This document shows positions 31,630 to 62,368 of a stretch of DNA of 64,000 nt, piece by piece. The stretch spans positions 192,001 to 256,000 of the forward strand of contig CAXXLZ010000002.1 of NCBI GenBank assembly GCA_963675595.2, in the 5' to 3' direction. The notes beneath the pieces are model-generated. The model worked only from the letters and a program-made list of their open reading frames with translations, was not told where the DNA came from and did not search any database. The position numbers and the translations under genes are program-made. The first letter of the stretch is position 1. Every line of letters begins with the position of its first letter. The stretch is from Thermodesulfobacteriota bacterium (lineage in GTDB: Bacteria; Desulfobacterota; Desulfarculia; JACQYL01).

Positions 31630-31706
31630 GCCCTCGTAGCTCAGGAGGATAGAGCACCAGATTCCTAATCTGGGTGCCGCAGGTTCGAGTCCTGCCGGGG
31701 GCACCA
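31630..31706 (+). tRNA. tRNA-Arg (anticodon CCT)
   Basis: Cloverleaf: acceptor GCCCTCG/CGGGGGC, D-arm GCTC/GAGC, anticodon arm CCAGA-TTCCTAA-TCTGG, T-arm GCAGG-TTCGAGT-CCTGC, encoded CCA. Confidence 0.97.
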
Positions 31707-31707
31707 A
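31658..31707 (+). repeat. attL: 50-bp direct repeat (3' part of tRNA-Arg)
   Basis: cagattcctaatctgggtgccgcaggttcgagtcctgccgggggcaccaa, identical at 60513-60562. Confidence 0.95.
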
Positions 31708-32358: not shown

Positions 32359-32562
32359 ATGACCACAAATTTCTTATCAGAAGCCGAGGCGGCCCTAAAT
32401 CTCAATATTTCCCCCCGAACGCTTCAGAAGTTTCGCGTAACCGGTCGAGGGCCGATTTTCAGAAAATTCGGGCGCCGGGTCCTTTATGACGCCCAAGACT
32501 TGGCCGCCTGGGCCGACCAAGCCAAACGGCGATCCACTTCCGATCGCGGAGCCCAGGGATGA
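32359..32562 (+). CDS. Excisionase/AlpA-like helix-turn-helix DNA-binding protein
   Basis: FLSEAEAALNLNISPRTLQKFRVTGRGPIFRKFGRRVLYDAQDLAAW (HTH_17-type); ATGA overlap with the primase gene. Confidence 0.88.
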   Translation: MTTNFLSEAEAALNLNISPRTLQKFRVTGRGPIFRKFGRRVLYDAQDLAAWADQAKRRSTSDRGAQG

Positions 32563-37521: not shown

Positions 37522-41070
<3,549 letters not shown>

Positions 41071-41143
41071 CCGACTGTCCACTACAGAATTAATTCTCCG
41101 GCCAAAGCGGGTAGAACTGAATTTTCGAGATCCAAATAATGCC

Positions 41144-41872
41144 ATGGAAAACCAAATTCTAAAAAATAGTCAGATCATGTCTGAAGTTATCAGACAGAAT
41201 TGGGAAATGGCAAGACACCACGAATCCAATAGATGGAGATATACGTATTACTATTATGCCGCTTTCGGTGCATATGTTTTCTATGTATCCAATATTTTAT
41301 CAGAAACAGAATTTGATATCCTAAGACTGTCTAAATATAAGCTAATACTAATAGCCAGTATTTCTATTATAATATACGCCATAGGCCGCGCATCACTTTA
41401 CCATCTTGTCTATTCAAATATAGAATACAAGAATCATATTAGGGCTCTTGAATATATTTCAAGTGATCTTGGGATTAACCATGGTATTTCTTACTATAGG
41501 CTATATATAACTAAACACAAACCAAATGCAACAAATAATGAATTTCGTTGTGCCTATATGGCCTTACCTCTAATGCTTCAGATAAGAAAGATTATGCCAT
41601 TACAAAATTTGACTATGGCTGGATCAGCTTTATCATTTTTTGCGTCAATCTTTTTTATTTCTATGGCAATGATAACTTTCGTTTTCAAGAACGGTTTATT
41701 ATCATGTCCGAATAACATAATCATAGCCATGTCTATTTCTTTAATATTTTCAGTGATGAATTTATCTAATCTAATTGATTCCTGCAACCGATTTCATTCT
41801 TACGCCGAACGAGAACTTGACAATCGAGACCCACGCTCTTTGAAAGTTGACTCTAATCGTCCTAATAAATAA
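41144..41872 (+). CDS. AT-rich multi-pass membrane protein of unknown function
   Basis: 242 aa with about 4 hydrophobic segments; markedly lower GC than the flanking genes. Confidence 0.75.
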   Translation: MENQILKNSQIMSEVIRQNWEMARHHESNRWRYTYYYYAAFGAYVFYVSNILSETEFDILRLSKYKLILIASISIIIYAIGRASLYHLVYSNIEYKNHIRALEYISSDLGINHGISYYRLYITKHKPNATNNEFRCAYMALPLMLQIRKIMPLQNLTMAGSALSFFASIFFISMAMITFVFKNGLLSCPNNIIIAMSISLIFSVMNLSNLIDSCNRFHSYAERELDNRDPRSLKVDSNRPNK

Positions 41873-41944
41873 GGGGGCTTCGGTCATTTCAGGATCTGAT
41901 TTTTTCTTCCCTTCTCGTTTACAGTAACCTCTTTGGAGTGATCT

Positions 41945-44836
41945 GTGACCCACGACATCAAAGCCCCCAAGAAACTCATTGAAACGGCGTTGCCCCTTAA
42001 CGACATCAATGCCGCGGCGGTTCGGGAGAAGTCCATCCGTCACGGGCATCCGTCCACGTTGCATCTTTGGTGGGCGCGGCGTCCTTTGGCCGTGGCCCGG
42101 GCGGTGATTTTCGCCCAGATGGTGAACGATCCGGGGTATGAACGCGCTTTGGGTCGGGGCATCAACAAAAAGGAAGCCGAAAAGGAACGGGAACGCCTCT
42201 TCGAAATCATCCGGAAGCTGGTGTTGTGGGAAAACACCAACAACGAAGCGGTGCTGGGGGAGGCTCGGGCGGAGATTTGGAAGAGCTGGAGGGAGACCTG
42301 CGCCCTGAACCGAAACCATCCCAAGGCTTCCGAATGGTTCGATCCGGAACGGCTGCCTGCCTTTCACGATCCCTTTGCCGGAGGCGGCGCCCTGCCCCTG
42401 GAAGCCCAGCGGTTGGGGTTGGAAGCCTATGCTTCGGACTTGAATCCCGTGGCGGTGCTCATCAACAAGGCCATGATCGAGATTCCGCCCAAGTTTTCGG
42501 GAAGAGCGCCGGTGGGTCCCCTGCCTCAAATGGAGCGGCAGTTGCGGGTGTCCGACGACTGGAACGGCGCCGCAGGTTTGGCCGAAGACGTTCGCCGGTA
42601 CGGCCATTGGATGCGTGAGCAGGCCTATCGGCGCATCGGGCATCTGTACCCCGAGGTGGAAGTGACTCGGGACATGGCGCAGGACCGACCCGACCTGGAA
42701 CCTTTGGTGGGAAAGAAGCTCACGGTCATCGCCTGGCTTTGGGCGCGCACGGTCAAGAGTCCCAACCCGGCCTATTCCCACGTGCACGTGCCGCTGGCCT
42801 CTACTTTCATGTTGTCCACGAAGCTCGGGAAAGAGGCGTATGTGGAACCGGTGGTGGAGGGAGATCAATATCGGTTTGTGGTGAAAACCGGGGCACCACC
42901 GGATCCCGAGAAGGCCAAAAGCGGCACAAAACTCGCGCGAGGATCCCACTTTCGATGCATTGTATCCAATTCTCCCATTGAACCGAGCTATATATACCAT
43001 GCTGCCAAATCCGGTGGTTTGGGGACCAAGATGATGGCGGTGGTTCTGGAAGGAGAAAAAGGACGCCTATATTTGCCTGGCAGTCCAGAGTTGGCGGCTT
43101 CAGCAAATCAAGCTCCACCAACCTGGGTTCCTGATTTGTCTATGCCGGAGAACCCTCGATGGTTCTCTCCGCCCCTCTATGGACTGAAAAACTACGGCGA
43201 CCTCTTCACCCCGCGCCAGCTCACCGCCCTGAACACGTTTTCGGACTTGGTGTCGGAAGCCCGGGAAAAGGTGAAATCCGACGCTTTGGCCGCGGGATGG
43301 GTCGGCGACGGCCTCGGGTTGGACGCCGGCGGAAACGGCGCAACGGCCTATGCGGACGCGGTGGCGGTGTATTTGGCGTTTGCTGTGGATAAGGGGGCTA
43401 ACTACTGGTCAACGCTCTGTTCCTGGCATTCCGGACGAGACACTGTGACAAGTACCTTCGGGCGTCAGGCGCTACCAATGGTCTGGGATTTTGCGGAAGC
43501 CAACCCTTTGAGCAAATCGTCGGGGAATTTCCTTTCCGGAGTCAATCAGGCCTCCGAGCTGTTGCGGAGGAGAATACCCGCTTCATCGGGGCACGCTTAT
43601 CAAGAAGATGCAGCCTCTCAAGCAAGCAGTTTAAGCAGAATTATTTCTACGGACCCACCTTACTACGACAACATCGGCTACGCTGATTTATCGGATTTCT
43701 TTTACGTGTGGCTGCGTAGAAGCTTGAAACCCATCTTCCCCGGTCTCTTTTCAACCCTGGCGACTCCCAAAGCCGAGGAACTGGTGGCCACCCCCTATCG
43801 ACACGGGAACAAGGAGGCTGCCGAAAAGTTCTTTTTGGACGGCATGACTCAAGCCATGGAACGATTGGCGGAGCAAGCCCATCCCGCATTTTCCACGACC
43901 ATCTACTACGCTTTCAAGCAATCGGAGCTTAAGAAGCCTGGAGCCGTTTCCACCGGGTGGGAGACCTTCTTGGAGGCCGTTCTCAGGGCAGGCTTCTGTA
44001 TCGCGGGCACATGGCCGGTACGCACCGAGTTGATCGGCAACCTCAAGAAAGTTACCAATGCGTTGGCCTCCAGCATCATCCTCGTTTGTCGAAAACGGAA
44101 CGTCCAAGCCGCCACCGTCACCCGGCGGGAGTTCCTCCGAGAGCTCAATGCCGCTTTACCCGAGGCTCTGGCGGATATGACCCGGGGAGAGCACACCTCT
44201 CCGGTGGCCCCGGTGGACCTGGCCCAGGCGATCATCGGGCCGGGCATGGAGGTGTTTTCCAAGTATGCGGCGGTGCTGGAGGCGGACGGCAAACCCATGA
44301 CCGTGCGCACGGCGTTGCAGCTCATCAACCGATTTTTGGCCGAAGAAGACTTTGACCGGGACACCCAGTTCTGCCTCCACTGGTTTGAGACGCATCACTG
44401 GGCCGAAGGCCGTTTCGGCGAAGCCGACGTGCTGGCTCGCGCCAAGGGCACCAGCGTGGAGGGCGTTGCTCGGGCCGGAGTCGTCGAATCGGGCAAGGGC
44501 GCGGTGCGCCTGCTGCGCCACACGGAGTATCCTTTGGACTGGGACCCGGAAACGGACCGGCGGTGCCCCATCTGGGAAGCCCTGCACCATCTGGTGCGCA
44601 TCCTCAAGACGGACGGCGAAGCCGCCGCCGGCCGGGTGCTCGACCGCATGAAGGATCGGACCGACGCCCTGCGCCAACTGGCCTATCGGCTCTACGCCCT
44701 GAGCGAGCGCAAGAGCTGGGGGGAAGACGCCCGGACCTACAATGAACTGATCAACTCCTGGCAGGGAATGGAAACGTTGCGGGAAGACGCGCCCAAGACC
44801 GCACCCCACCGCCAGGACACTTGGCTGAAGGAGTAG
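41945..44836 (+). CDS. DUF1156 adenine-specific DNA methyltransferase
   Basis: [13 protein letters not shown]-binding DPFAGGG and catalytic [18 protein letters not shown] motifs. Confidence 0.93.
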
Positions 44837-44875
44837 CGGCTTTTTCAACGGTCTCACAAGCCCACAGGAGCCTCC

Positions 44876-47701
44876 ATGTTGAAACCCTGGCGCGAAGTCG
44901 CCGTTCCCCATGAAGACGTGCTCAAGGGCACCTTCCAGCAGGCCGAATTCGCCGCGGACCTCTCCCGGGTGCACGACGGCACCGCAACGGCCGAATACCA
45001 GAACGCCGAGCTTTTCTTTCAGCGAACCTTCATCACCGAGGGCATGCGCCTGCTTCTGGATTCCGTGGTGCGACGGCTGGCCGGTCGGGGCGGAGACCCG
45101 GTGATCCAGCTTCAGACGGCCTTCGGCGGGGGAAAGACGCATACCTTGTTGGCCGTGTATCACCTGGCCCGGGGAGAAGCTTCGGCGGGAGACCTGCCCG
45201 GCGTGGCCCCGGTGCTCAACGGCGCCGGGGTGGTGGAACTGCCGCCGGTCCGGACCGCCGTGCTGGACGGCAACAAATTTGCGCCCAATGCGCCTCGCCA
45301 AAGTGACGGCATCAAGGTCCACACCCTGTGGGGAGAACTGGCCCGGCAATTGGGCGGCGAAGCGGGCTACCAACGAGTTCGGGACGCGGATGTTTCCGGC
45401 ACTTCCCCTGGGAAGCAAATCCTTGCCGAGCTCCTGGACGATTGTTCGCCCTGCGTGGTGCTTATGGACGAACTGGTGGCCTACATACGGCAGTTCGAAG
45501 AGGGCAAGTCCCTGGCGGGCGGCACGTATGAATCCAACCTGTCCTTTGTGCAGGCCCTCACCGAGTCCTTCAAGGCCGTACCCACGGCGGTGCTACTCGC
45601 TTCCCTGCCCGAGTCGGACAAAGAGGCCGGCGGAGTTCGAGGCCACGCGGCCCTGAAAACGCTGGAGCATTATTTCGGACGCACCCAGGCCTTGTGGAAG
45701 CCCGTGGGTTCCGAGGAGGCCTTCGAGATCGTTCGGCGAAGACTGTTCTCGAAGATCGACGACCGGGCGGCGGCAGAGGCGGTGTGCCGGGCCTTTGCCG
45801 ACTACTACACGGCCCAGGGCACTGATTTTCCACAGGAAACCCAGGAGAGTCGATACTACGCGCGGCTCACGGAGGCCTATCCCATCCATCCCGAAGTGTT
45901 CGACCGGCTGTACGGCGACTGGTCTTCCCTGGACAACTTCCAACGCACCCGGGGCGTGTTGAAGCTGATGGCCAAGGTGATCCACCGGCTGTGGAAGGAC
46001 GGCAACAACGACCTCATGATTCTGCCCGGGAGTCTGCCGCTGTACGATCCGGACACCCGCAACGAGGCCATTTACTACCTGCCTCAAGGATGGGACCCGG
46101 TGTTGGAAAACGACATCGACGGCGAGCGAGCCCAAACCACGGCCATCGAGAACAAGGAAACCCGACTGGGAGCGGTGCAGGCCTGCCGGCGTGCGGCCCG
46201 GACCATCTTCCTGGGCAGTGCGCCCACCACCCCCAATCAACTGGTCCGGGGGCTGGAAATCGAGCGGGTGATTTTGGGATGCGCCGAGCCCGGCCGACAG
46301 ACCGGCGTGTTCAAGGATGCCCTCGCACGCCTGACGGACCGGCTTCATTACTTGAACAGCGCGGACCATCGGTTCTGGTTCGACACACGGCCCAATCTTC
46401 GTAGGGAAATGGAGGAACGGAAGAAGCGGTTCAAGGATGGACAGGACGTGCTGCCCGTCATCCGGGAAGGGATACAGAAGAGCCTGCCCTCCGGGGTGTT
46501 CGGGGGGGTGCACGTATTCACACCGAGCGGAGACATTCCCGACGACCAGGCGCTTCGATTGGTGGTCCTTTCTCCTGAAACTCCCTTCTCCCGCACGGAG
46601 AACCGGTTCTGGAAACCCACGGCGGAAGAGATTCTGCTGAACCGGGGCGATCAGCCTCGCCACCGACAAAACCGCCTGCTGTTCTTGGCGGCGGACTTCG
46701 ACAACGTGGGTCGCCTCAAAGACCAGGTGCGCTCCATGCTGGCGTGGAAATCCATTGTTACGGACTATCGTGAAAACCGCCTCGTGCTGGACAATCTCAT
46801 GGCGGCCCAGGCGGAAGCCGCCCTCAAGCAGGCGCTGGAGGCTTTCAAGAAAGCTCTGCGCGAGACCTACAAATGGGTCCTGGCGCCCGGTCAGGAAGCA
46901 CAACCGGGAAAAGGCGTCTCCGAAATCTTCTGGGAACACTTTCCCATCAACTCCGGAGCCGCGAATCCTGCTCTGGAAATCGAAAAGGTGCTCAAAGAGA
47001 ACGTAACGCTCATTTTGGAGTGGGCGCCCTATCACCTTTCCAAAATGATGAAGCAGTGGTTCTGGAAGGAAGGCGTTCCTGCAGTGGGCGCCTTGGAGGT
47101 GTGGCAGGCCATGTGTTCCTTTCTGTATCTGGATCGGCTCAAGGACGAAGACGTATTCCGGGCCGTACTGACGGCCGGTTCGGAAAGCAGCGATTTCTTC
47201 GGATTGGCCCAAGGGAAGGAGGGGGACAAATACCTGGGGTTTTCCCTGGGAAAGGCTACCTCACCCGTTTTGGACAATTCTCTTCTGCTCATCGAACCCG
47301 AGACCGCGGCCGCCTATGCCGATGCTGAAGCAGCCTCTAAGGAAGGCAAGACCGGGATTCCCGGCGATCCCTACCCCGAAGGAACCCCCGGGGGCGGGAC
47401 GGGAGTCCAGGAACCGGGAGCGCCGGGATACAATGGTCAGGAAGAGGACTCAGCGGGGGAGCCCCCCAAGAAGCGTTTTTACGGTTCTCTGGAAATCGAT
47501 CCGGTAAAGGCCAAGAAGCAGTTTTCCGACATGGTGGACGAAGTGCTCATGCAGTTCAGCACTCGCCCCGACGTGAAGCTTCGAATCGTGCTGGAATTGG
47601 AAGCGGAAAGCCCTTCCGGGTTTGACGGGGCCACCCAGCGCACGGTGAAGGAGAACTGCGGGGTGTTGAAGTTCAGGAATGCGGAGTTCGAGAAGGGTTG
47701 A
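44876..47701 (+). CDS. DUF499 AAA+ ATPase
   Basis: [17 protein letters not shown], Walker [10 protein letters not shown], Walker B VVLMDE, YPIHPE and FQRTRGVL motifs. Confidence 0.92.
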
Positions 47702-48303: not shown

Positions 48304-50736
48304 ATGAACATGCCCGACCTTGACAAGGTGATTTCTCTGGTTCTTCCCAATGGTCTGGAAAAGTCTCGATCCGGTCGACCCATTCGCGTATTGGGGATCG
48401 ATCTGGGTACCACCAACTCCACCGCTTCCACCGCTTCCTGGCGGGCGGGCGGTGCGTTTCCTCCCGAAGTCCGCTCCGTTGAAATCGTGCAACCCACTCT
48501 GCAGGGAGATTACACTCATTCTCTGTTGCCCTCGGTGGTGGCCCTCTACAACGGGCAGACCTACGTGGGGGAGGGAGCCAAACGATTGCGTTCCCGAGCC
48601 GCTGAACTGGGACTCAAGCCCTTCGAGAATCTATTCTACGAATGCAAGAACGAAATGGGGATAAAGAGGACCTATCACCGCGCCCCGGAAGGTTACCGAT
48701 CCCCGCCCGAAATCGGCGCCAAAGTCATCGACACCATGATCAAGGCCGCCGGCGAGGAGTTGGGGGCACAGCCCGATCGGGTAGTAATCACGGTTCCGGC
48801 CTCCTTTCAGACGGCCCAAAGGATGGACACGCAACAGGCGGCTCAACTGGCCGGTTTGAATATCGCCGGTGGAGACCTGTTGGACGAGCCGGTGGCTGCG
48901 TTTCTCGATTACGTGTTTACCTCGGGCGTGGATTTGGGATTGGAACGTGCCTCTTCTCGGACGGTGGTGGTGTTCGATTTCGGAGGCGGCACTTGTGACG
49001 TGGCGGTATTTCGATTGAAGCGAACCGGCACGGAACCGGGGCCTTTGGGCGTCGAGTTTCTGGCCGTTTCCCGGTACCACCGGTTGGGCGGGGGGGACAT
49101 CGATGCGGCGGTGGTTCATGAATGCCTGATTCCCGAGCTTTGCCGACAAAACCACCTCAACCCCCTGGATCTAGGGTTCGAAGACAAGAAGAAATACCTG
49201 GAACCCGCTCTTCTGGGTACCGCGGAAATGCTCAAGGAAGGCCTCTGCACGGAAATCCAACGTCTCATGAGTTTCGATAAGTATGAGGGAGCCGACAAGA
49301 CGACCATGGTGAAAACCCAGCCTGGGACCCAGGAGTGTCGGGTGGGGAACCGCAGTTACCGATTGACCGCTCCCAAGCTTTCCACCGCACAACTGGAAGA
49401 GCTTCTGGATCCCTTTCTGGACCAGGATTTACTCTATGCCCGGGAGACGGAATACCGGATGACCTGCTCCCTGTTCGCTCCGCTGCAGGATGCGTTGGAC
49501 CGTGCGGGATTGGAGCCGCGTCAAGTGGATTACTGCCTCATGGTTGGGGGTAGCAGCTTGATTCCTCAAGTGAGGGAAAGTGTCGGGGCCTATTTTTCCA
49601 AGGGTGAGCTCCTGCTTTTCGGGAGCCGGGAAGACTACAAGACGTGCATCTCACGGGGGGCGGCCATTCACGCCGTAGCGTTGGAGGCCATGGGCAGGCC
49701 CCTGGTGCAACCCATATGCCATGACGAAATCGCCATCCGAACCCAAAGCGGACGGATTGGACTGATTTCCAAAGGCAGTTTCCTGCCCTTTCCGGCGGAC
49801 GGCGGCTTCGCCTATTCCTACGAAGTCGCCGTGCCGAATACCACGACCGTCGAGCCCTGTAATGTGCGTGTGGAATTGGCAACCAAGGAAGATGACCGTC
49901 AACTCTTTTCCCAGGTATGGTCCGTACCGGGTCCGGTGACCCAGGGAACGCCCATCCGCTTGGAATATCGGATGGATGAAAACCAGGTGCTCCAGCTCAA
50001 GGCAAGGCTGGACGAGATGGATGAAGGGGAAGAGTTTTCCGCGACCCTGGAGAATCCACTGACCCACGTGGTGAACCCGAATGAAAAGCGCCTTGAGATC
50101 GACCGAACGGAAGAAGACCTGCGCACCGGAAGGATTCCAAAGACTCAGGTCCCGGAAAAGCTCGCGGAACTCTCGAAGCTCTATGCCGAGCTGAACCAGC
50201 TGGAAAAAGCGATTGATTTTATCAAACGGGCCATCGCCGCCCGCAATCCTCCGGATGTGTTTCTGCTCAACCGACTGGCCGCATACTACGGTGAACGTGG
50301 TGATTCGGAACGCCAGGAAAAGGTATATCGGGAAGCGACTCGGGTTTCTACGTGGAGCGGCTCGTGGTTCAACTTGGCCCTGGCCTTGTGGCGCCGCAAG
50401 AAGTTCTCCAAAGCACGGGAGGCCATAGACCAGGCCATTGAAATAGACCGACAGGCGCCCTACCTGGTGCTGGCCGGATTGATTGCGGGCTCACTTAAAG
50501 ACTCGGAAAAGAGCCAAGCGCTGCTTTCCGAAGCCATGGACTCGTTCGATCCGGTACCCGGTCTGGATGATTTTGAATTGGGTTGGTTTGTAAAAGGAGC
50601 GCAGACCCTTTCCGACCAAGACAAGCTGTCAGAGGGTCGGGCGGAGCAACTGAAGCGATCAAAAACAGAGGACAGGTCGACCCCGGAAGGCGAACTACCT
50701 GTGGCTACCCCTGGATTGATGAGGACGGCATCATGA
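48304..50736 (+). CDS. Hsp70-family ATPase with C-terminal TPR repeats (non-DnaK)
   Basis: GIDLGTTNS, ITVPASF, DEPVAA, FDFGGGTCDV, LGGGDID and VGGSSLIPQV motifs; the last ~200 aa are TPR-like helical repeats. Confidence 0.88.
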   Translation: MNMPDLDKVISLVLPNGLEKSRSGRPIRVLGIDLGTTNSTASTASWRAGGAFPPEVRSVEIVQPTLQGDYTHSLLPSVVALYNGQTYVGEGAKRLRSRAAELGLKPFENLFYECKNEMGIKRTYHRAPEGYRSPPEIGAKVIDTMIKAAGEELGAQPDRVVITVPASFQTAQRMDTQQAAQLAGLNIAGGDLLDEPVAAFLDYVFTSGVDLGLERASSRTVVVFDFGGGTCDVAVFRLKRTGTEPGPLGVEFLAVSRYHRLGGGDIDAAVVHECLIPELCRQNHLNPLDLGFEDKKKYLEPALLGTAEMLKEGLCTEIQRLMSFDKYEGADKTTMVKTQPGTQECRVGNRSYRLTAPKLSTAQLEELLDPFLDQDLLYARETEYRMTCSLFAPLQDALDRAGLEPRQVDYCLMVGGSSLIPQVRESVGAYFSKGELLLFGSREDYKTCISRGAAIHAVALEAMGRPLVQPICHDEIAIRTQSGRIGLISKGSFLPFPADGGFAYSYEVAVPNTTTVEPCNVRVELATKEDDRQLFSQVWSVPGPVTQGTPIRLEYRMDENQVLQLKARLDEMDEGEEFSATLENPLTHVVNPNEKRLEIDRTEEDLRTGRIPKTQVPEKLAELSKLYAELNQLEKAIDFIKRAIAARNPPDVFLLNRLAAYYGERGDSERQEKVYREATRVSTWSGSWFNLALALWRRKKFSKAREAIDQAIEIDRQAPYLVLAGLIAGSLKDSEKSQALLSEAMDSFDPVPGLDDFELGWFVKGAQTLSDQDKLSEGRAEQLKRSKTEDRSTPEGELPVATPGLMRTAS

Positions 50737-51953
50737 ATGGAGCTGTGAGTTGGTTGATCCCAAGAGAGGAATTAACCCGAGAACAGGTGCGGGCCATCGA
50801 GATGGACCCGAAGGAACACCGAGTCATTTTGGGAGGCCCCGGATCCGGAAAGACTCAGATTCTGCTGCACCGTGGTCGGTTCCTCCAGGAAGCCTTCAGG
50901 GTGGCCCCCGAGCGCTTCCGCATTTTCGTATACACCAACGCCCTGCGCACCTACATACATTCCGCACTGAACCTGCTGGACCTGCCGGATGATTCGGTTT
51001 CCACCTTGGATGCTTGGTGCGGGAAGTTCCACACCGAAAACATCGGACGCCGTCTTCCATGGAACAAGGAAGCGAAATGTCGGGATTTTGGGACGATCCG
51101 GGAGGCCGTAGTCAAGAAGATTTCTGAGAGCGGGAACAAGCCTTTTGATTTTGTCCTGGTGGACGAAGCCCAGGATTTGGACGCTACGGCTTTGAAACTG
51201 CTGAAGGCCATGTCCAACCATGTGACGGTCTGCGCGGACCACAAACAGCAACTCTACGACCACGGATCGGAGATATCCGAAATTCTCCGGACTCTCGGCG
51301 TGAAACGAAGCAACGTAACCCTGCTGGAAACCTATCGTTGCTGCCCATACATCGTCTCGCTAGCGGCCGAACTCATCGATGATCCCACGGAGCGGGAGCA
51401 ATACGTCAGACAGTTGAAAACAAGCCAGGCCGAGCGTGAGACACCTTTGCTTTACTGCGCTTCCGATGCGGAAGACGAAACACGACAGATGATCGACCTC
51501 GCACGCACCAGACTCAATAAGGGCGAACGGGTGGCGGTGCTCTTTCCTCAGAAAAGGCAGGCCTTCGGTTACGCCAAGGCTCTGGAAGAAGCGGGCATCC
51601 AGGCGGAGAATCCCAATGATCTGGACTTCACTACGGACAAGCCCAAGCTGATGCCTTACCACAGCGCCAAGGGGCTCACCTTCGACAGCGTGATCCTCCC
51701 TCGGTTGACACCGAGGTCCTTCGGAACCATGTCCACGGACCGCATCAAGCACTTGCTCTTCGTGGGCATCACCCGAGCCATCAAATGGGCGGCCATGATC
51801 ACGACGCAAAGCAACGGCTTTGCGCCTCTTGCCCGGTTGACGCCGCCCGCCGGCCTCAGATGCCTAACGGTGCGGAAACATGGGGACTCATCGGCTGCGA
51901 CCGCGAATGCAAAAGGGAACGTTGAAGACGACGATGGACTGGATATTCTTTGA
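50733..51953 (+). CDS. Minimal UvrD/SF1-type helicase-ATPase
   Basis: Q-motif LTREQ, Walker A GGPGSGKT, VDEAQD, YHSAKGLTFD and FVGITRA motifs; 406 aa; ATGA overlap with the Hsp70-TPR gene. Confidence 0.88.
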   Translation: MNGAVSWLIPREELTREQVRAIEMDPKEHRVILGGPGSGKTQILLHRGRFLQEAFRVAPERFRIFVYTNALRTYIHSALNLLDLPDDSVSTLDAWCGKFHTENIGRRLPWNKEAKCRDFGTIREAVVKKISESGNKPFDFVLVDEAQDLDATALKLLKAMSNHVTVCADHKQQLYDHGSEISEILRTLGVKRSNVTLLETYRCCPYIVSLAAELIDDPTEREQYVRQLKTSQAERETPLLYCASDAEDETRQMIDLARTRLNKGERVAVLFPQKRQAFGYAKALEEAGIQAENPNDLDFTTDKPKLMPYHSAKGLTFDSVILPRLTPRSFGTMSTDRIKHLLFVGITRAIKWAAMITTQSNGFAPLARLTPPAGLRCLTVRKHGDSSAATANAKGNVEDDDGLDIL

Positions 51954-52002: not shown

Positions 52003-52400
52003 TTAGGTGTTCCGCTCCAGCCATTCCTGCAAATTGTCCGTTTTGATCCGCAGCATGGGGTAGTCCCTTTCCATCCAGGCCAGGGTGATTTCCTGGATGT
52101 ACAAAATGCGAGGCGGATTGTGTTCCATACTTACAAGGCCAACATGAAATGCCTTCCCCGCTCCAAAGTGCGAAGGGTGTAGCACTTGTTTCGGACGCCT
52201 GCGGGATAGTCGGCGTGATACAAATGCAGATCGAGAAGCCTTTTCCCTCCGCCTTTGGGTTCCAGCCGATCCACCCGAATGGGGGAGCAAGTGTTGTCCC
52301 CCAATTCGTCTCCCAGGAATCGACACGCATACCAGTGTTTCGGTTTTAGTGTGAAGCGGGTTGCCTTTACATCGTCGCTTGATTTCCAATTGGATATCAC
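52003..52400 (-). pseudogene. Small hypothetical gene apparently split by a frameshift near 52135
   Basis: ORF 52131-52400 (…TLERGRHFMLAL*) is continued in another frame by SMEHNPPRILYIQEITLAW… to 52003; starts 2 nt after the upstream gene's stop. Confidence 0.45.
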
Positions 52401-52402
52401 TG

Positions 52403-53458
52403 TCAGCCGCTCCAGATCATCGCTAACAACACGAGTAGGATGACGAATTGAATAATTGTGGCTACAACAAAGACGTTCTGTTGCATGAAAGTCTTGGATG
52501 TCTCTTTTATGGCTCCGATTTCAGATTCGATCTCCTCCACTTTGCGGTCGAACTTGGGTTCGATGTGCGTTTTCAGCGTGTTTTTCAGGTCGGTCAGAGC
52601 GGCATCCGTGGTGCGCTTTTGCTGCTGCAGCACTCCTGACAAGTCCCTCTGGACCGTTTCGATTCTTTGTCTTAGCTCCGGCTCCATTTCATTCTTGACA
52701 TAGGCGGTCATGCTTTCCCTGAATGCCGCGATTTGCTTTTCCTGGTTCTCCACTCTGTTTTCATACTCATCTTTGAGAGTGCTGAAATCTTTATTCAGAC
52801 CCCATACCGTTTCTTTGTATTTCTCGTCGTTTTTCCTCTGAAGGGACGAGAAGTCTCCCTGCAACTCGTTTCTATCCTTTTCGTACTTGGCCTCGATGGA
52901 TTGCTCCAATGCGGAAAATCTTCCTTGGGTTTCTCCGATCAGATCTCCAAACTTCGTTTTATAGGACCTCTCCGCCTCCAAGAGCCTTTCCATGGATCCC
53001 TCGATTTCTTCTTCGAGACGATTGGTCATAGCTTCGACCGCGGCATCCAGGCGGGCTTCCTGGTCCGCAATCCAGTCTTCCATGTCCTGCTTCGTCTGGT
53101 CTATCCATTCCGAGGTGGATTGGACGTTGGCCTCACCCTTCTCATAGACGCCCTGGACAAGGCGGTTCGCTTCCTCCAGCAACCGAGCGTAACCGCCCAT
53201 GGTATCCGTGAAGGTCGCTACCGATCCTTCGGATTTCTTCTGAAGCTGTCCGATCTTTTCGTACAATGTTTCATACGCGTCTTGATAGTCGGCAATGCTC
53301 TCCTGGACGTCGCTGCGAAGTTGCTCCAGCTCATCTCGTATTCTTCGAAGGTTGCCGACAAGTCCGGCCAAGTCCTGAGCCTCTTTGTCCAATTCGCGAA
53401 TGCGCTGTTCCGCCAAGCTTATGTCGAGAAGCGATTTCGATTCCATCGTGATCACCAT
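52403..53458 (-). CDS. Long coiled-coil protein with C-terminal transmembrane anchor
   Basis: 351 aa, heptad-rich and acidic throughout; ends VFVVATIIQFVILLVLLAMIWSG; start overlaps the RecQ-like gene stop. Confidence 0.82.
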   Translation of the reverse strand: MVITMESKSLLDISLAEQRIRELDKEAQDLAGLVGNLRRIRDELEQLRSDVQESIADYQDAYETLYEKIGQLQKKSEGSVATFTDTMGGYARLLEEANRLVQGVYEKGEANVQSTSEWIDQTKQDMEDWIADQEARLDAAVEAMTNRLEEEIEGSMERLLEAERSYKTKFGDLIGETQGRFSALEQSIEAKYEKDRNELQGDFSSLQRKNDEKYKETVWGLNKDFSTLKDEYENRVENQEKQIAAFRESMTAYVKNEMEPELRQRIETVQRDLSGVLQQQKRTTDAALTDLKNTLKTHIEPKFDRKVEEIESEIGAIKETSKTFMQQNVFVVATIIQFVILLVLLAMIWSG

Positions 53459-56400
53459 TTGGCCAGTTCGGTTTTGAGGGCTTGGTCTTTGTTCAACCTT
53501 CCGATCGTCTGACCAAACTGCTTCTGGTATAAGTTGCAGCTTAGCGACAAGGCTTCTTCGTGTTCCAGGCCGGCCTTCTCCATATCCGCAGCCATCATCC
53601 TGACAAAATCCATATCCTCGGAAGCGCCGTCGACCTTGGCATAAGTCCTGATGGCGGATGCGCCGTCAAATCGAGCATATTTCTCATAGCCCCAAGTCGA
53701 GAGTTCCAAATTCTTGTGCATAATGTTTTCTATTTCCGCAAATTGCCGGTGATATCTATGGGCTGAAGACCTGATTTCTGCATCATCTTCTCTTTGAAAC
53801 GAGTCGGCGACTCCCATATTTGCCAATGAATTGATCGGGTCGACCTCCAGCTTGGCCGCTGCATGCTGTCCAAAAGCAACCACAAAGCCTTGCTTTTCGG
53901 CTTCATCTAAAGCCCATTCGTATTCCTGAACGTCTTTGGTCTCAAAGGAGTGCTCTTCTCTGACCAAAATGTCCCTATGTTGCGCATTGTCTTTTGCCGG
54001 AACAGCGGAACTCAGGGTGAAATTCAGGTCTGGAACACAGGAATCACTATCGCAAAATCCACATTTATGTCCATCGTCCACCTGACTCATCGTTCCCAGT
54101 AGATATTGTCTCCTGCATCGATTCTTTATCCGAACATATGTCATAAGATTGAGCAAAGATTGAAGGCGCATACTGAGCACATATTTCCTGACCTCAGTGA
54201 ACAGTCTATATACCGCATTTTGTACATGAAAATCTTTCGGCGGACTATTATTGTTTGGAATATCTCCCACCAAAACTTTTCGCTGTATTTCGTTTATCGT
54301 TTCTACGTCCAATTCCTTAGATCGACCAAGTTCGCTTCTAAAAGTGGCCATCTTCATTAGTTCAGATATTAAAGAAGTAATCATTGAATAACATGTTGGT
54401 TTTTCAACAGGCATTATCAAGAAGTCTATATCCGTAAACCGACCAATGCTATTATACTTCAACTTAAAATGACTAATCAGCTTTAGTTGTTGTAGTCTAA
54501 ACAACTCATTGTTTATTCCTATCAGCAACTTATCCGCATGTGCACTGTTAGTCTTTACACTTTTGACCCAGTAGCCATCGACAGGGTTCTTCGATTTGAT
54601 CTCTTGCCACAGTTTGGTGGTCCTTTCGGCGAATTTCTCAGGGCTTGCATAATGTTCAAGGACCATTCTGAACTGTCGTGAGAAGTCGCAAGGTTCGGGT
54701 AATCCTATCTCGGGTGGACACTTCCGTTGCAGATAATATTTCCCTCTCATGCAAGGCGGAAGCAAAAAATCATCTTCTCGGGTTACCAGGCCGATCGTTT
54801 CCAGATGTTCGTCTAAGCATTTCCGGGTTGGTAGACGCACCACGAGCGAGCAATGGGAATGCTCTCCGTCCCTGCCGGCTCTCCCGACCTCCTGATAATA
54901 CCCTTCGATACTGGCGGGCATGCAGGAATGTACAATGAACCTGAGGCCTCTGTGGTCAATGCCCATTCCATAGGCTTTCGTAGCCACCAATAACGGAATG
55001 GCCTTTGCCTTGAATCGACGCTGGACTTTAAGAATATCCTTGTCCCAGTTTGGGTCGGATTTCGGTTTGCGGAAGGTATGGCCGTTGGAGCATTGGAATC
55101 CTCCTCCATCTTCAGCCGGAATATTTCGAATGGCATAGACGAACTTCCCTTCCTGTTTGCAATAAGGGCAGAAGTCTGGGGTATGGGACGCATAAATATT
55201 GAAGAACTGATTCTCGATAATACCCCTAACGTCCAGCATATTGCCTATAGCACCGACGCCGTCTTGCCAAGAGGTCTGCCCTTTAGGGTTCGCATACACA
55301 CAAAAGATAGCCCCACATCCTATACCCTCCCAATGCCCTTGACTGAAGCCGGCCCAGTCGAAATCGTGGGTATACCGGAGAGCCGTCGGAATGGCCATCG
55401 TCAAGATATCACAAATGGAATCATGACGATCATCCGGATATCTTGTCCCTGCAAGTGTGTGAACCGAAAAAGAAAGCTCGGTCCGATCAATATTTGCCTC
55501 AGCGAGCAGACTTCCACCGTCTCTGCAATCCTTCACACTAAGATTCAAAATTCCACAAATGTCTTCCTTGACGGGATCGGTCGCCGTGGCCGTCAGAGCA
55601 AGAATCGGCGTTTCAATTCCACTTTGATATGCTGAGACGTTCTTCAAGAAAAATGGTATCTGCAAATAGGCGATGCGAAAGTCATGGCCCCACTCCGATA
55701 CGCAGTGGGCCTCATCGATGCAAAGCAAACTGAGACAAACGGAAGCGGAAGCTTTTTCAAGCTTATCAGAAAAACTTAATATTTGTAGGCGTTCCGGAGC
55801 AACATAGAGGATATCTACAAAGCCATATAGGAAGTCGTCGACGGCATCCTCCTTATCACTGGAACTCATGTCATAACGGATGGATTTGACCATATTAAAG
55901 CCTTTGTTCAAGGCCAAATCCTCCACTTGGTCTCTCATGAGTGCTCTCAAGGGAGAGATGATCAGGGTACTGGAGGGCAGCAGTTTGGCCGCCAATTGGA
56001 ACGCGGCCGACTTCCCTCTGCCTGTGGGCAGGATACCCAGAATTGATTTCCCCGAGAGAACGCCGCAAATCAGCTCATACTGCCTGAGTTCCGTGTTCGG
56101 ATTCTCAGGATCATAATGGTGCCAAAGGAAGGGTATGCGCAGTAAACGTCTGGAGAAGTAGTCGATCAACGATTTACGGAAACAAACCGGAGCCGAAGTG
56201 ATTCGCGCTTTTGATCGATCAACGGTCAGCGCCCGAAATCTTGCCCGCAAGGTGGCGATATTACAGGCTTCCCTTCCGAGAATATTGGGTCTTGCGGCAA
56301 CATCCGGAGTTAACGGGATTCTGCCTTCACGAGTCAGGTCAATGATTAAGTCCGGAACCTCATCGTTGGACCGACTGCTTCCTATCTTGAAGATATTTTC

Positions 56401-57660
56401 GATGTCTTTAAGTACATGAGCGTCAGGACCTTTCTCCATCGCTTCAACATAACCGCCTGCAATCTTATCCAAGACTTCCACCTGCCCGGTGATAACACCT
56501 CCATGACCGTTAACTAAGCGAAAATCAGGAAACCGGTATTCCACACCGTATAGTTTTTGACATTGCTTTATGATCATCCGCAAGTCATACAGAGCCAAGA
56601 AATTTAGATTTGGGAGTTTGGAATTATCAATGATGGTGATTTCGCCGGATTCTTCTGTATAGTAGAGCTGCAAAAGCATGCCCATTTGAAAAGGCCTGAA
56701 CCATTTCGAGTAGCCCTTGAAAGTGTCTATAATGATTGATTGGTCCTCGCTGTTCGCATGCACCATGCCGGGTGCATCGAAGATACTGGTCTGATCGCAG
56801 CTCAGAGAGCTTTTGGGTATGACGCCCAAGATATTGTCGATAATTCGTTCCGGCTCCTGAAGGATTTGTCTTGCAGGGTATCGATATAGCTGATAGCCCA
56901 AGGATAAAATGTAATTCTGACGCTTTAATTGTCTTTCCCATTCCTCAGGCGATATCCTGTCCGGATCATGGTATTCGCGGCCGTCTACCTCGATAATGGT
57001 GCCCTTGCCGCCCGTATTTATGAAGAAATCGCCCACATAGTTGGATCCCTCGATTTTCATCTGAGGGGTGATGAAGTCAAGAGCGGATAGTCCATAGGCC
57101 GGCACGATGACGTTGATGATGAACGCTCGCTCGGCGAAGTGCGGGTCCGGGTTGTCGAGGGATGTTTCGTAATGGCCTTTTTCTTCCAACCACTGATCGA
57201 CTTGATCCAGGTCGGTAGCGGTAGGTGGCTTGAATTGGGGAGAATTGAATAACTCGATGAATTTCCGGCTGAATCTGTACCTGGGCATGTAGGAAGGACC
57301 CGCGTAGTACGCTTCCCCGACCGGTTCCGGACGACATGTTTTGGGGGAGTAGTCGGAATCCAAACAAGTGATCCTGTTTCCACGAGCTGCGATGGCAGGA
57401 TTCAAGCCGTTTCCGGAATTTCTCCCCTGTTCGAACTCCACCAAGTCGGGATTCATGTCGGCTATCGCGGCAACGATGGCAAACTCCAATTGATAGGGCA
57501 GCTGTTTTATCAGGGCCTCAGGAGCCAGATGAGGCAGGTATTCCAGACCCGTGTTCCGGGGATACTCAGAATCGTTTTCCAAAGAACTCCGAAAAAGCCT
57601 GGGGTCGATCATCCTGGCGATCAGATCGATGAATTCCCGTCGATTCATACGCGCGCCCAC
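53452..57660 (-). CDS. RecQ-like SF2 helicase fused to an N-terminal DUF559/Vsr-like endonuclease domain
   Basis: GDFFI...IIEVDGREYH...RQNYILSLGYQLYRY nuclease segment; LPTGRGKS, SPLRALMRDQ, APERL, DEAHCVSEWGHDFR, TATA, ATKAYGMGID, YYQEVGRAGRDG and CRRQ...CGFCD motifs. Confidence 0.88.
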   Translation of the reverse strand: MGARMNRREFIDLIARMIDPRLFRSSLENDSEYPRNTGLEYLPHLAPEALIKQLPYQLEFAIVAAIADMNPDLVEFEQGRNSGNGLNPAIAARGNRITCLDSDYSPKTCRPEPVGEAYYAGPSYMPRYRFSRKFIELFNSPQFKPPTATDLDQVDQWLEEKGHYETSLDNPDPHFAERAFIINVIVPAYGLSALDFITPQMKIEGSNYVGDFFINTGGKGTIIEVDGREYHDPDRISPEEWERQLKRQNYILSLGYQLYRYPARQILQEPERIIDNILGVIPKSSLSCDQTSIFDAPGMVHANSEDQSIIIDTFKGYSKWFRPFQMGMLLQLYYTEESGEITIIDNSKLPNLNFLALYDLRMIIKQCQKLYGVEYRFPDFRLVNGHGGVITGQVEVLDKIAGGYVEAMEKGPDAHVLKDIENIFKIGSSRSNDEVPDLIIDLTREGRIPLTPDVAARPNILGREACNIATLRARFRALTVDRSKARITSAPVCFRKSLIDYFSRRLLRIPFLWHHYDPENPNTELRQYELICGVLSGKSILGILPTGRGKSAAFQLAAKLLPSSTLIISPLRALMRDQVEDLALNKGFNMVKSIRYDMSSSDKEDAVDDFLYGFVDILYVAPERLQILSFSDKLEKASASVCLSLLCIDEAHCVSEWGHDFRIAYLQIPFFLKNVSAYQSGIETPILALTATATDPVKEDICGILNLSVKDCRDGGSLLAEANIDRTELSFSVHTLAGTRYPDDRHDSICDILTMAIPTALRYTHDFDWAGFSQGHWEGIGCGAIFCVYANPKGQTSWQDGVGAIGNMLDVRGIIENQFFNIYASHTPDFCPYCKQEGKFVYAIRNIPAEDGGGFQCSNGHTFRKPKSDPNWDKDILKVQRRFKAKAIPLLVATKAYGMGIDHRGLRFIVHSCMPASIEGYYQEVGRAGRDGEHSHCSLVVRLPTRKCLDEHLETIGLVTREDDFLLPPCMRGKYYLQRKCPPEIGLPEPCDFSRQFRMVLEHYASPEKFAERTTKLWQEIKSKNPVDGYWVKSVKTNSAHADKLLIGINNELFRLQQLKLISHFKLKYNSIGRFTDIDFLIMPVEKPTCYSMITSLISELMKMATFRSELGRSKELDVETINEIQRKVLVGDIPNNNSPPKDFHVQNAVYRLFTEVRKYVLSMRLQSLLNLMTYVRIKNRCRRQYLLGTMSQVDDGHKCGFCDSDSCVPDLNFTLSSAVPAKDNAQHRDILVREEHSFETKDVQEYEWALDEAEKQGFVVAFGQHAAAKLEVDPINSLANMGVADSFQREDDAEIRSSAHRYHRQFAEIENIMHKNLELSTWGYEKYARFDGASAIRTYAKVDGASEDMDFVRMMAADMEKAGLEHEEALSLSCNLYQKQFGQTIGRLNKDQALKTELAKW

Positions 57661-59187: not shown

Positions 59188-60360
59188 TCACTGAGTCGAT
59201 TTGTTGACCGACTCCATGATCTTCCGCCCTACTCTTTCGGCTGCCTGTTTCAGAGGATCGCCCGCCAAATGGGCATATCGGGCGGTGGTCTGCGGTTGGG
59301 TGTGCCCCAGCAGGGCGCCGATCATGGGCAGTGCCAAGCCGGATGCCGCCGCCACACTGGCGAAGCTGTGTCTCAGGTCGTGCAATCTCAGATCGGATAA
59401 GCCGGCTCGGGCGCGAATCCTTTGCCAGGGTCTCTGAATACTCACCAGATGCGCTCCGGGCTTTTTCCCCACAATCACGTAAGGGTTCTCCTTGAAGCGA
59501 GGAGCGGATGCCAGGACTGCCACCGCCGCTTCCGGCAAGTGGACGATTTTGCGCCCTGTCTTTGAGTCGGGGAGATTCAGGATTCCCTTTTCCAGGTCCA
59601 CGAATTCCCAACGCAGGGTCTTGATTTCAGATAAGCGGCAGCCGGTAAGCAGAAGCAGACGGACGGCAAGCGTCACGCAAGGCCACTCCTCACCTTGCTG
59701 TTCCACCTCCGTCAACGTCCGCCCCAATCTCGAAATCTCTTCCGTGGAGAGGAAACGCTCCACTTTGTTCTCTTTGAACTTCTCCACGTGTCGGCATGGA
59801 TTGGAGCCGTCGGACCGAAGCCCCCATTTTTCGGATAGATTGAACATCTTGGAGAGCAGGGCCATGGCCCTGTTTGCCTTGATCGGAGTATCCCTCAAGG
59901 AATAATGAAGCTTGGCCAGATCGGAACGATTCACATCTCCGATTCTTCTCGCGCCCAGTGCCGGCAGGACGGTAAGGCGCAGCAGCCTTTCGTCTTCCTC
60001 GACGCTGCGTTTCTTCTTCTTGATTCTGGCATGTTCGGTCAGGTAACGATTCGCCAAGTCGGCCACGGTGGGAGCATGCCGATCTTCTTGTTTTTCCTGC
60101 GCCGGGTCTTTACCTCTGTCCACGTCGGCCAACATGAGACGGGCTTCCCGCCTCGCCTCATCCGGCGTCAGCCTGCCGTAGGAACCCACGGTCAGCCGTC
60201 GGCTTCTTCCTTGGGCGTTTCTATACTGGATGAAAAAGCTCTTGGAACCGGAAGGTTTGACTCGAAGGCCGAAACCGATCAGGTCATCATCCCAAACGAA
60301 AATGTCCCTTTCGGGGTTTGCAACCAAGCTGTCAACGACTCGTTTGGTAAGTTTGGGCAT
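59188..60360 (-). CDS. int: Tyrosine recombinase/integrase with N-terminal arm-binding domain
   Basis: [12 protein letters not shown] arm domain; catalytic residues in [18 protein letters not shown] and TARYAH; adjacent to attR. Confidence 0.95.
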
Positions 60361-60378
60361 GATCCCTCCGGTGGCGTC

Positions 60379-60410
60379 GGGTAAGCAGTAGGTAAGCACG
60401 GGTAAGCAAA
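60379..60410 (+). promoter_or_regulatory. Putative integrase arm-type binding sites (3x GGTAAGCA)
   Basis: gggtaagcagtaggtaagcacgggtaagcaaa between the int start and attR. Confidence 0.6.
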
Positions 60411-60512: not shown

Positions 60513-60562
60513 CAGATTCCTAATCTGGGTGCCGCAGGTTCGAGTCCTGCCGGGGGCACCAA
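60513..60562 (+). repeat. attR: duplicated 3' part of tRNA-Arg
   Basis: Identical to 31658-31707; lacks the 5' acceptor and D-arm, so it is not a complete tRNA. Confidence 0.95.
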
Positions 60563-62188: not shown

Positions 62189-62368
62189 CACGCACATGGT
62201 ACGGGCGCCCTCGCCTTCCCGCCAAGATGCCCGATAGGCCTCTGCTTCAGACTCACGTAAGCTGTCGCTTATGGTCGCCTCAATGCTGAAAGCATCCCAT
62301 TAGTGATGACGGAAGATCGGAGAATCGGCTCCGCAGATCAACAAAACGAGTTTAACGGAGGTAGGGAA

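Follow-up and report, generated by a model that had tools for sequence, protein, structure and literature searches.

What might a RecQ-like helicase with a nuclease in the same chain be doing on a bacterial mobile island, and why should its gene be joined so closely to the gene for a membrane-anchored coiled coil? This question is raised by a 64,000-nucleotide (nt) stretch of a Thermodesulfobacteriota genome (contig CAXXLZ010000002.1, positions 192,001 to 256,000), hereafter called the window, in which the two genes lie on the reverse strand (Table 1). By comparing the pair with related loci and with known systems we arrived at a tentative answer, to which we give slightly less than an even chance. 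Helicase and partner would form a self-contained two-gene cargo module of mobile elements, most likely one that restricts invading phage, plasmid or transforming DNA. The defensive role is one that we infer from context. We prefer it because motor and nuclease are combined in one chain, because the family is rare and patchy, because its members occur in mobile and defence-rich settings, and because there are two precedents, Hhe and RqlHI. Helicase-nucleases are recurring immune effectors of bacteria, and little is known of what keeps them away from the chromosome of the host and leads them to an invader. That such an enzyme should be consistently paired with a membrane-anchored rod suggests a simple solution, namely one of location.

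Is the pairing a peculiarity of this window? The initial annotation had proposed that the helicase gene is coupled to a downstream gene for a coiled-coil protein with a transmembrane helix. We found a coiled-coil gene behind the helicase gene at all 12 loci with readable downstream DNA, the window included; the loci outside the window belong to Planctomycetota, Chloroflexota, Thermus, Deinococcus, Thermomicrobium, Cyanobacteria and Rhodoferax (Table 2). At 11 of them (the window, L001, L085, L086, L008, L003, L002, L051, L153, L155 and a contig of 6047 nt, for which the spacing was not read) the coiled-coil open reading frame (ORF) starts between -17 and +22 nt of the helicase stop codon. The partners range from 187 to 391 residues and have a common coiled-coil build. 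Nine of the 12 carry a C-terminal membrane helix, two lack it, and one is cut by the end of its contig. Eight further loci, with a truncated helicase or a truncated contig, were excluded: in L005 the helicase is cut by a contig end, in L082 it stops at 1130 residues with 286 nt left, in L084 the gene lies in two frames, and L004, L081, L083, L087 and L088 are short contigs.

Table 2. Loci other than the window at which a coiled-coil gene follows the helicase gene. L001, L085, L086 and the 6047-nt contig belong to the close family, the remaining loci to distant relatives.
Locus	Source	Partner (residues)	C-terminal helix	Remark
L001	Planctomycetaceae metagenome-assembled genome (MAG)	304		begins 8 nt past helicase stop
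L085	close family			partner cut by contig end
L086	close family	284-288
6047-nt contig	Rhodopirellula MAG			helicase P0022 and partner P0128; co-location deduced from matching contig size and MAG name
L008	Tepidiformaceae	259	yes
L003	Thermus altitudinis	187	yes
L002	Microcoleus	262	yes	helicase without nuclease domain
L051	Rhodoferax	258	no
L153	Thermomicrobium roseum megaplasmid	213	yes
L154	Thermus thermophilus pAA1-1b	187	yes	transposase gene between helicase and partner
L155	Deinococcus wulumuqiensis plasmid	391	no

In the window itself, the partner has a charged fraction of 0.34 and a hydrophobic tail of 22 residues. On the Kyte-Doolittle scale its best stretch of 19 residues averages 2.99 and ends three residues before the C-terminus. 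We read this protein as a cytoplasmic coiled coil whose tail is anchored in the membrane by a single C-terminal helix, which agrees with its first description. Among close-family partners the first 40 residues are strongly conserved and the remainder is not; K4, S5, L7, A12, R15, L29, L33, R37 and D38 are invariant in seven such sequences. This stretch is a candidate docking helix that may contact the helicase. Scans against Pfam and PADLOC returned for the partner only coiled-coil-type matches below threshold, a scan against NCBIfam returned no match, and the ESM Atlas gave low-recognition matches with no usable lead. A profile search for homologues found only 5 proteins, because the word index handles coiled coils poorly. 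Prediction of a complex between helicase residues 996-1402 and partner residues 1-110, with alignments, gave no answer (0.00, against a mark of 0.32) and speaks neither for nor against binding.

The helicase gene had been described as an AT-richer gene of 1402 residues. The ORF is present, and the content of guanine and cytosine (GC) is 0.44-0.51 across 52-57 kb as compared to 0.56-0.64 in the preceding ten 1-kb windows. Translation likely starts at the ATG at 57648, which gives 1398 residues; the database copy of this helicase likewise begins at M5 and is 1398 residues long. The junction of the two genes reads AAATGGTGATCACGATGGAA. Here the 351-residue ORF begins with an ATG that overlaps the helicase stop (ATGGTGA), as had been noticed at the outset, and a second ATG, 5 nt past this stop, is a better fit to the starts of the homologues. 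Judging from this junction, helicase and partner genes are translationally coupled. A scan for promoters and terminators gave counts not above those in shuffled sequence and no site upstream of the operon.

Table 1. Features of the gene pair and of the surrounding island, in window coordinates.
Feature	Position	Strand	Remark
Nuclease-RecQ-like helicase gene	53452..57660	-	1402-residue ORF from GTG start
Vsr/DUF559-type PD-(D/E)XK nuclease domain (predicted)	56803..57147	-	residues 172-286
Alpha/beta domain between nuclease and helicase	56251..56763	-	residues ~300-470
RecQ-type superfamily 2 (SF2) motor	54826..56103	-	residues 520-945; Walker A PTGRGKS, DEAH 649-652, QEVGRAGRDG
Cys/His insert within second RecA lobe	55078..55179	-	CPxC ... 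CxxGH, residues 828-861
Post-motor region	53980..54825	-	residues 946-1227; 4-Cys cluster, strand-and-helix module, RecQ zinc-binding-like motif
C-terminal helical-repeat (TPR-like) domain	53455..53979	-	residues 1228-1402; in place of HRDC
Tail-anchored coiled-coil partner gene	52403..53458	-	351 residues from overlapping ATG, or 347 from ATG 53446
Conserved N-terminal stretch of partner	53324..53446	-	~40 residues; sole well conserved part
C-terminal transmembrane helix of partner	52415..52471	-	FVVATIIQFVILLVLLAMI, then 3 residues
Two short overlapping ORFs	52003..52400	-	89 residues from GTG 52400; second frame ends at 52003
Left island boundary	31658..31707	+	3' half of tRNA-Arg(CCT); copy of perfect 50-nt direct repeat
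DnaG-type zinc finger, Toprim and DUF927 primase-helicase-like gene	32559..35393	+	left end of island
Complete Hma defence system	37522..47701	+	PADLOC HmaA 2093, HmaB 1641, HmaC 1456 bits
Hsp70-like ATPase-TPR fusion (810 residues), then UvrD/GajB-like helicase	48304..51953	+	convergent with helicase-partner operon
Tyrosine integrase	59188..60399	-	Pfam Phage_integrase 3.5e-20, Arm-DNA-bind_3 1.1e-18; right end of island
Right island boundary	60513..60562	+	second copy of 50-nt repeat

Does the N-terminal part of the helicase carry a nuclease? The Pfam model of DUF559 matches residues 202-280 with 21.2 bits, which is a marginal pass of its cut-off (20.6), and the MTES_1575 model matches the same residues with 24.1 bits, under its cut-off of 38.2. 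Most close helicase homologues come with precomputed matches to PF04480, PF18741 or both. The EVDGREYH motif that had drawn attention to a Vsr/DUF559-like nuclease sits inside this domain. We aligned 24 full-length family members, and the candidate catalytic residues D211, E224, D226 and H231 are invariant in this alignment. A D...E-x-D/E pattern can also be seen in the nuclease part of the helicases at L003, L008, L051 and L005.

A structure model of residues 5-520 (predicted local distance difference test, pLDDT, 78.8; predicted template modelling score 0.80) allowed comparison of folds. In VIA, residues 168-282 matched the catalytic domain of I-Bth0305I (3r3p_B; Z 9.8, root-mean-square deviation 3.9, 98 residues aligned), the DUF559 protein from Neisseria (3hrl_A; Z 9.0, root-mean-square deviation 3.1, 93 residues aligned, 27% identity) and Vsr (1cw0_A; Z 8.2). 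Foldseek matched the domain to 3hrl with a probability of 1.00 and a template modelling score of 0.70 on the target. In Table 1 of a survey of PD-(D/E)XK nucleases these three structures define the Vsr/DUF559/DUF2726 clade (PMC3424549). The model of our helicase thus shows a Vsr-type nuclease fold at the N-terminus, for which endonuclease activity is predicted. Between nuclease and motor the model shows an alpha/beta domain in which strands alternate with helices, mostly at pLDDT 80-90. Its matches are weakly Rossmann- or methyltransferase-like (PRMT5 at Z 4.4 in VIA; Foldseek E values above 0.1). For this domain and for residues 1-165 no fold could be assigned from the Foldseek and VIA lists, which the nuclease domain filled.

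The motor agrees with its first description as an intact RecQ core. Pfam DEAD matches residues 527-698 (3.8e-19) and Helicase_C residues 877-932 (9.7e-11), solved RecQ structures match with 5e-42, and the Walker A, DEAH and arginine-finger motifs are invariant in the 24 sequences. The helicase scores 206.3 with NCBIfam recQ_fam (cut-off 219.8) and 231.5 with the recQ equivalog model (cut-off 640.2), and these matches are split in two because of an insert in the second RecA lobe. Within this insert C831, P832, C857 and H861 are invariant and C834 is kept in at least 90% of the sequences; going by the motif, it is probably a zinc ribbon. A second set of cysteines (C948, C970, C981, C991) and a third (C1182, C1200, C1203, C1208, in a low-confidence stretch of the model) are invariant as well. 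The Pfam RecQ_Zn_bind model matches residues 1164-1205 with 20.5 bits, under its cut-off of 25. Both Cys-rich inserts that had been pointed out initially are thus present, with Cys and His residues invariant or nearly so.

The end of the chain is modelled as helical, as had been predicted, and takes the place of HRDC. A second model, of residues 940-1402 (pLDDT 75), shows about ten C-terminal helices at pLDDT 80-96; the best TPR-type match has a Z of 8.9, below the decisive level for helical folds. Neither RQC (PF09382) nor HRDC (PF00570) gave a Pfam match in the helicase at E <= 0.1, while canonical RecQ sequences from the same homologue search carry both.

The helicase family is rare and patchy. 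Among 5.8 billion proteins we found 23 clusters of full-length relatives at 38-45% identity and six shorter ones. These close relatives are mainly metagenomic and the few named ones are Planctomycetota; beyond them there are proteins of similar length at ~30% identity. The C-terminal 463 residues, searched in 1.84 billion proteins, returned 63 representatives at E <= 0.001 and 13 at 1e-30. In 60 relatives of the host we found no comparable helicase match; three weaker matches (the best at 5.5e-12) are short DUF559-like frames. Likewise, the search of 400 other genomes from the phylum of L001 gave no match at E <= 1e-15. We found no relative of the helicase in IMG/VR and no match at 1e-20 in 50,697 phage records, and absence from these collections argues neither for nor against a defensive role.

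Could the gene simply be the housekeeping RecQ of its host? In the host genome, which is 98% complete, no RecQ-family match lies above the curated cut-off, and the best match is the helicase gene under study. We also built a tree of the motor by quick search from 39 rows, chosen from the homologue search and the loci, and 390 columns; the sample is small and the root was chosen. A branch with a support of 99 in the Shimodaira-Hasegawa-like approximate likelihood ratio test splits the four canonical RecQ rows from the other 35. The group of the window's family has a support of 99 and is nested in a group of 19 rows (support 93) together with helicases from Thermus, Tepidiformaceae and Microcoleus. 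This branch, the 60 host relatives and the host without recQ above cut-off all place the helicase apart from housekeeping RecQ. The initial annotation had named three findings that would count against it, namely homologues that usually occur without the coiled-coil gene, clustering with housekeeping RecQ, and an N-terminal domain that lacks a nuclease fold. None of the three was observed; we found paired helicases, a separate branch and, in the model, a nuclease fold.

The pair also sits on mobile DNA. A perfect 50-nt repeat of tRNA-Arg delimits an island of 28.9 kb, and the pair is cargo of this integrative island. The initial label of an unassigned cargo operon holds: in PADLOC (version 2.0) the partner is not represented by a model, and only the core of the helicase finds a match. 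In the literature that we searched, which did not extend to subscription journals and supplements, we found no published description of the pair.

Mobile or defence genes adjoin several of the related loci. In L008 the pair is preceded by genes for a type II methyltransferase and for a PDC-S02-like nuclease; in L003 a type IIG-like enzyme is encoded downstream, and in L002 an Aga Cas4-like nuclease with a CapP-like peptidase upstream. ORFs just upstream in L003 were judged ParA/ParB-like by reading their translations. In L051 (3417-12974) a full-length ZorD/DpdE-like SNF2-Mrr gene (1340 and 662 bits) lies directly upstream and a WYL regulator downstream; judged from gene order, this arrangement may be a three-gene variant. 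In L154 (3786-12202) an annotated ParB-family gene is found upstream and a DpdE-like SNF2 gene (514 bits) two genes downstream. In L001 (4644-17745) the pair lies inside a prophage remnant, with a gene for a Doc (Fic/DOC) toxin next to it.

Which known system does the pair resemble? Hhe (Gao et al. 2020) is a single-gene defence system with a superfamily 1 (Upf1/DNA2-like) motor and a C-terminal nuclease. Like the helicase described here, it combines a DNA helicase and a nuclease of the Vsr/DUF559/MTES_1575 type in one polypeptide, but our helicase has an SF2 RecQ-type motor, an N-terminal nuclease, extra clusters of cysteines, a tail of helical repeats and, at every readable locus, a coiled-coil partner. 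HheA is not among the PADLOC matches listed for the helicase, which cover 25 of 31 families. Hhe is reported to be active against lambda, T3, T7 and PhiV-1, and the exchange E1731A at a putative nuclease-domain site abolished its weak activity against T7 (10.1101/2022.06.16.496414). By analogy, the pair may work most like Hhe.

PsyrTA and RqlHI are, like the present pair, two-gene units on mobile DNA that are led by a non-canonical RecQ-like helicase. RqlH is reported to be a genotoxic helicase which is restrained by its neighbour RqlI (PMC4670107). The PADLOC model of PsyrT matches our helicase with 6.5e-64 and 214 bits in three stretches, the best of which aligns residues 526-709 with positions 25-204 of 689 in the profile. 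This match covers only the motor, whereas our helicase adds a nuclease domain and the second gene encodes a tail-anchored coiled coil; PsyrA is not among the 10 PADLOC matches of the partner at E <= 0.1. We rejected membership in PsyrTA because there is no PsyrA-type partner.

The best PADLOC matches of the helicase are DpdF models (3.9e-70), and DpdF is also closest for L003 and L008. DpdE-like SNF2 genes adjoin some members of the family. Nevertheless, the NCBIfam DpdF model scores 140 against a cut-off of 550, and a Pfam scan of the island ORFs above 150 residues returned nothing like tRNA-guanine transglycosylase (TGT) that would point to genes of the dpdA/B/C type (ORFs at 35.4-37.5 kb were listed only). 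We rejected the assignment to DpdF because of this score and because no dpdA-C were seen on the island. In the available part of the Dpd study, DpdF is described with neither a nuclease domain nor a coiled-coil partner, and DpdD-K are said to give a restriction phenotype to which the individual proteins contribute in ways that are unknown (PMC10164549).

With Zorya the pair shares a concept, a membrane-anchored coiled coil combined with a helicase-nuclease effector (PMC11946911). However, our effector is RecQ-type and not SNF2-Mrr, and the partner has a single helix and no Pfam match to a MotA/ExbB domain. The partner matches the ZorA models of PADLOC only along the coiled-coil tail of ZorA (31 bits, at positions 202-510 of a profile of 692). 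The pair was not assigned to Zorya because a MotAB-type protein is missing, and the likeness is one of analogy. Canonical RecQ has the motor in common with our helicase and probably the 4-Cys zinc motif, but our helicase has ~520 extra N-terminal and ~200 inserted residues, no RQC or HRDC match, a separate branch in the tree and a patchy distribution. Since the curated cut-offs are not reached and RQC and HRDC are absent, we do not count it as canonical RecQ.

How could such a pair protect a cell? In one chain, the helicase combines an endonuclease-type domain with a RecQ-type motor that would run 3'-5' on DNA and has three putative zinc sites. The conserved N-terminal helix of the partner would dock on this chain and park a potentially genotoxic enzyme at the cytoplasmic face of the inner membrane, off the chromosome. 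The motor may then be loaded by DNA that crosses the envelope, or by free ends or forks of a replicating invader, and by unwinding this DNA it would feed the attached nuclease, which cuts. The domain make-up, the conserved residues of catalytic type, the gene pairing, the mobile and defence-rich setting and the rare, patchy occurrence were observed; binding, parking at the membrane and the nature of the substrate are inferred. A bolder version, which we consider somewhat improbable, is that the pairs from Thermus and Deinococcus to Chloroflexota, Cyanobacteria and Planctomycetota constitute an undescribed two-gene immune system in which the tail-anchored coiled coil holds the RecQ-nuclease at the membrane, where it would destroy entering DNA. 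Such an enzyme would be positioned at the point of entry and would rely on no modification mark; it may also hinder natural transformation in highly competent thermophiles. Homologues occur on plasmids of Thermus thermophilus, an organism that is genetically tractable and naturally competent.

Several observations weigh against defence by a self-contained pair, for which the arguments are contextual throughout. The loci are few and were chosen by similarity, not sampled at random. Partners from distant clades have no detectable homology to the close-family partner (hhalign probabilities of 30% and 2%), so that outside the close family only position and architecture appear to be shared. The partners in Rhodoferax and Deinococcus have no membrane helix. 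The helicase of Microcoleus has a partner even though it lacks the nuclease domain; therefore, cutting by the helicase polypeptide is not essential to every member. The copy in T. roseum lies among genes for cytochrome oxidase, with MutM nearby, and L082 and L084 are set amid ordinary-looking genes. Finally, some copies look decayed, namely L082, L084 and those on T. thermophilus plasmids which match in two pieces. Such two-piece matches were observed on six other T. thermophilus plasmids (H3-H8), under runs of hypothetical proteins, and are possibly decayed copies.

Other explanations were weighed as well. The pair might not act on its own and could supply the effector for larger restriction-type systems of variable make-up, with an SNF2/DpdE-like helicase and often a methyltransferase, DpdE-DpdF-like in kind and here perhaps acting with Hma. 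The affinity of the helicase core to DpdF in the window, L003 and L008 would fit this idea, as would the SNF2 gene with near full-length DpdE/ZorD matches directly upstream in L051, the DpdE-like SNF2 gene downstream in L154, the large DEAD/DEAH helicase gene that overlaps the gene start in Deinococcus L155, the methyltransferases that flank L003 and L008, the genes for HmaA, HmaB and HmaC on the window's island, and the restriction phenotype of DpdD-K. We nevertheless regard it as unlikely. The coiled-coil gene is the sole neighbour common to all 12 loci, while SNF2 or methyltransferase genes adjoin a minority (L051, L154, L003 and L008). The Hma genes of the window are on the opposite strand and end 4.3 kb away, with the Hsp70-like and UvrD-like pair in between, and both the low DpdF score and the missing TGT-like dpdA among the larger ORFs of the island speak against a Dpd system. 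Should the pair nonetheless prove accessory to systems of the Hma, Dpd or DISARM kind, their poorly understood restriction halves could be approached through it. A toxin-antitoxin-like unit of the PsyrTA/RqlHI type, in which the coiled coil merely neutralises a nuclease-helicase toxin and which would act in addiction or abortive infection, appears very doubtful to us. The match to PsyrT, the restraint of RqlH by RqlI, the translational coupling and the presence of the pair on plasmids and islands all agree with it. On the other hand, the match to PsyrT is confined to the helicase core and the partner shows no likeness to PsyrA, a simple antitoxin would hardly be expected to take the shape of a long membrane-anchored rod, and in T. 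thermophilus pAA1-1b an insertion sequence parts the two genes while the helicase gene remains open.

RecQ helicases and Vsr are repair enzymes, and the host has no canonical recQ. A device for DNA repair, recombination or maintenance of the element has to be considered, with a membrane-associated RecQ-type enzyme acting on the element's own DNA or on damaged host DNA. ParA/ParB-like genes by L003, the ParB-family gene by L154 and MutM near the copy in T. roseum point in the same direction. Repair is hard to reconcile with absence from all 60 host relatives and from all 400 genomes of another phylum, and the lower GC content, the decayed copies and the varied neighbourhoods are no easier to accommodate. 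The helicase gene also has no fixed place beside the primase or integrase of the island; taken together, we find this explanation distinctly unlikely. There is also the question as to whether the pairing means anything at all. The downstream coiled-coil ORFs could be unrelated or spurious and the helicase could act alone, like Hhe. The lack of detectable similarity among partners of distant clades speaks for this, and the complex prediction gave no answer. But a partner is present at 12 of 12 loci, at 11 of which it lies a few bases at most from the stop; partners of 187-391 residues share the same coiled-coil build and usually the C-terminal helix; the first 40 residues are strongly conserved in the close family; and partners were called in independent assemblies. 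A non-functional pairing is barely credible in view of these numbers.

What belongs to the unit, and what else is carried by the island? The initial annotation had placed a third, apparently frameshifted gene behind the partner. An ORF of 89 residues with a GTG start does begin 2 nt beyond the partner stop and is present in one copy in the genome; the proposal that it is a gene, or a frameshifted one, found no support. It has no match in Pfam, its sole match among the 5.8 billion proteins is itself, and in L001, L003, L008 and L002 nothing like it was seen behind the partner. Because the short ORFs in this segment have no family match, no homologue and no counterpart in related loci, we left them out, and from their sequences they probably do not belong to the two-gene unit.

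The DUF927 primase-helicase-like gene at the left end is probably the replication gene of the island. Between hmaA and hmaB lies an ORF of 242 residues for an 8xMP-like membrane protein (41144-41872), in a 1-kb window with 37% GC. The 810-residue Hsp70-like/TPR protein has no PADLOC match, and the best match of the UvrD/GajB-like helicase next to it is at 1.5e-19; these two genes form an unassigned pair. Just upstream of the helicase gene, fragments of a beta-propeller (DUF5122/Rax2/Reg_prop-like) are spread over three overlapping frames (57861-58877, reverse strand); these repeats are probably remains of a decayed gene.

Some details of the related loci may be added. Of the lambda-type portal, the prophage remnant in L001 retains only the C-terminal part; it also encodes a capsid, a cement protein and a protein for head-tail joining. 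In L155 (1-3975) the large DEAD/DEAH helicase gene that overlaps the start of the RecQ-like gene gives SngC/DruE-like matches, and a C-terminal stretch of its product matches the ends of the PsyrT and ShosT models. Finally, a gene for a Peripla_BP_6 binding protein lies just outside the island (62303-63628), and another is found near the helicase in L082 (6287-7618).

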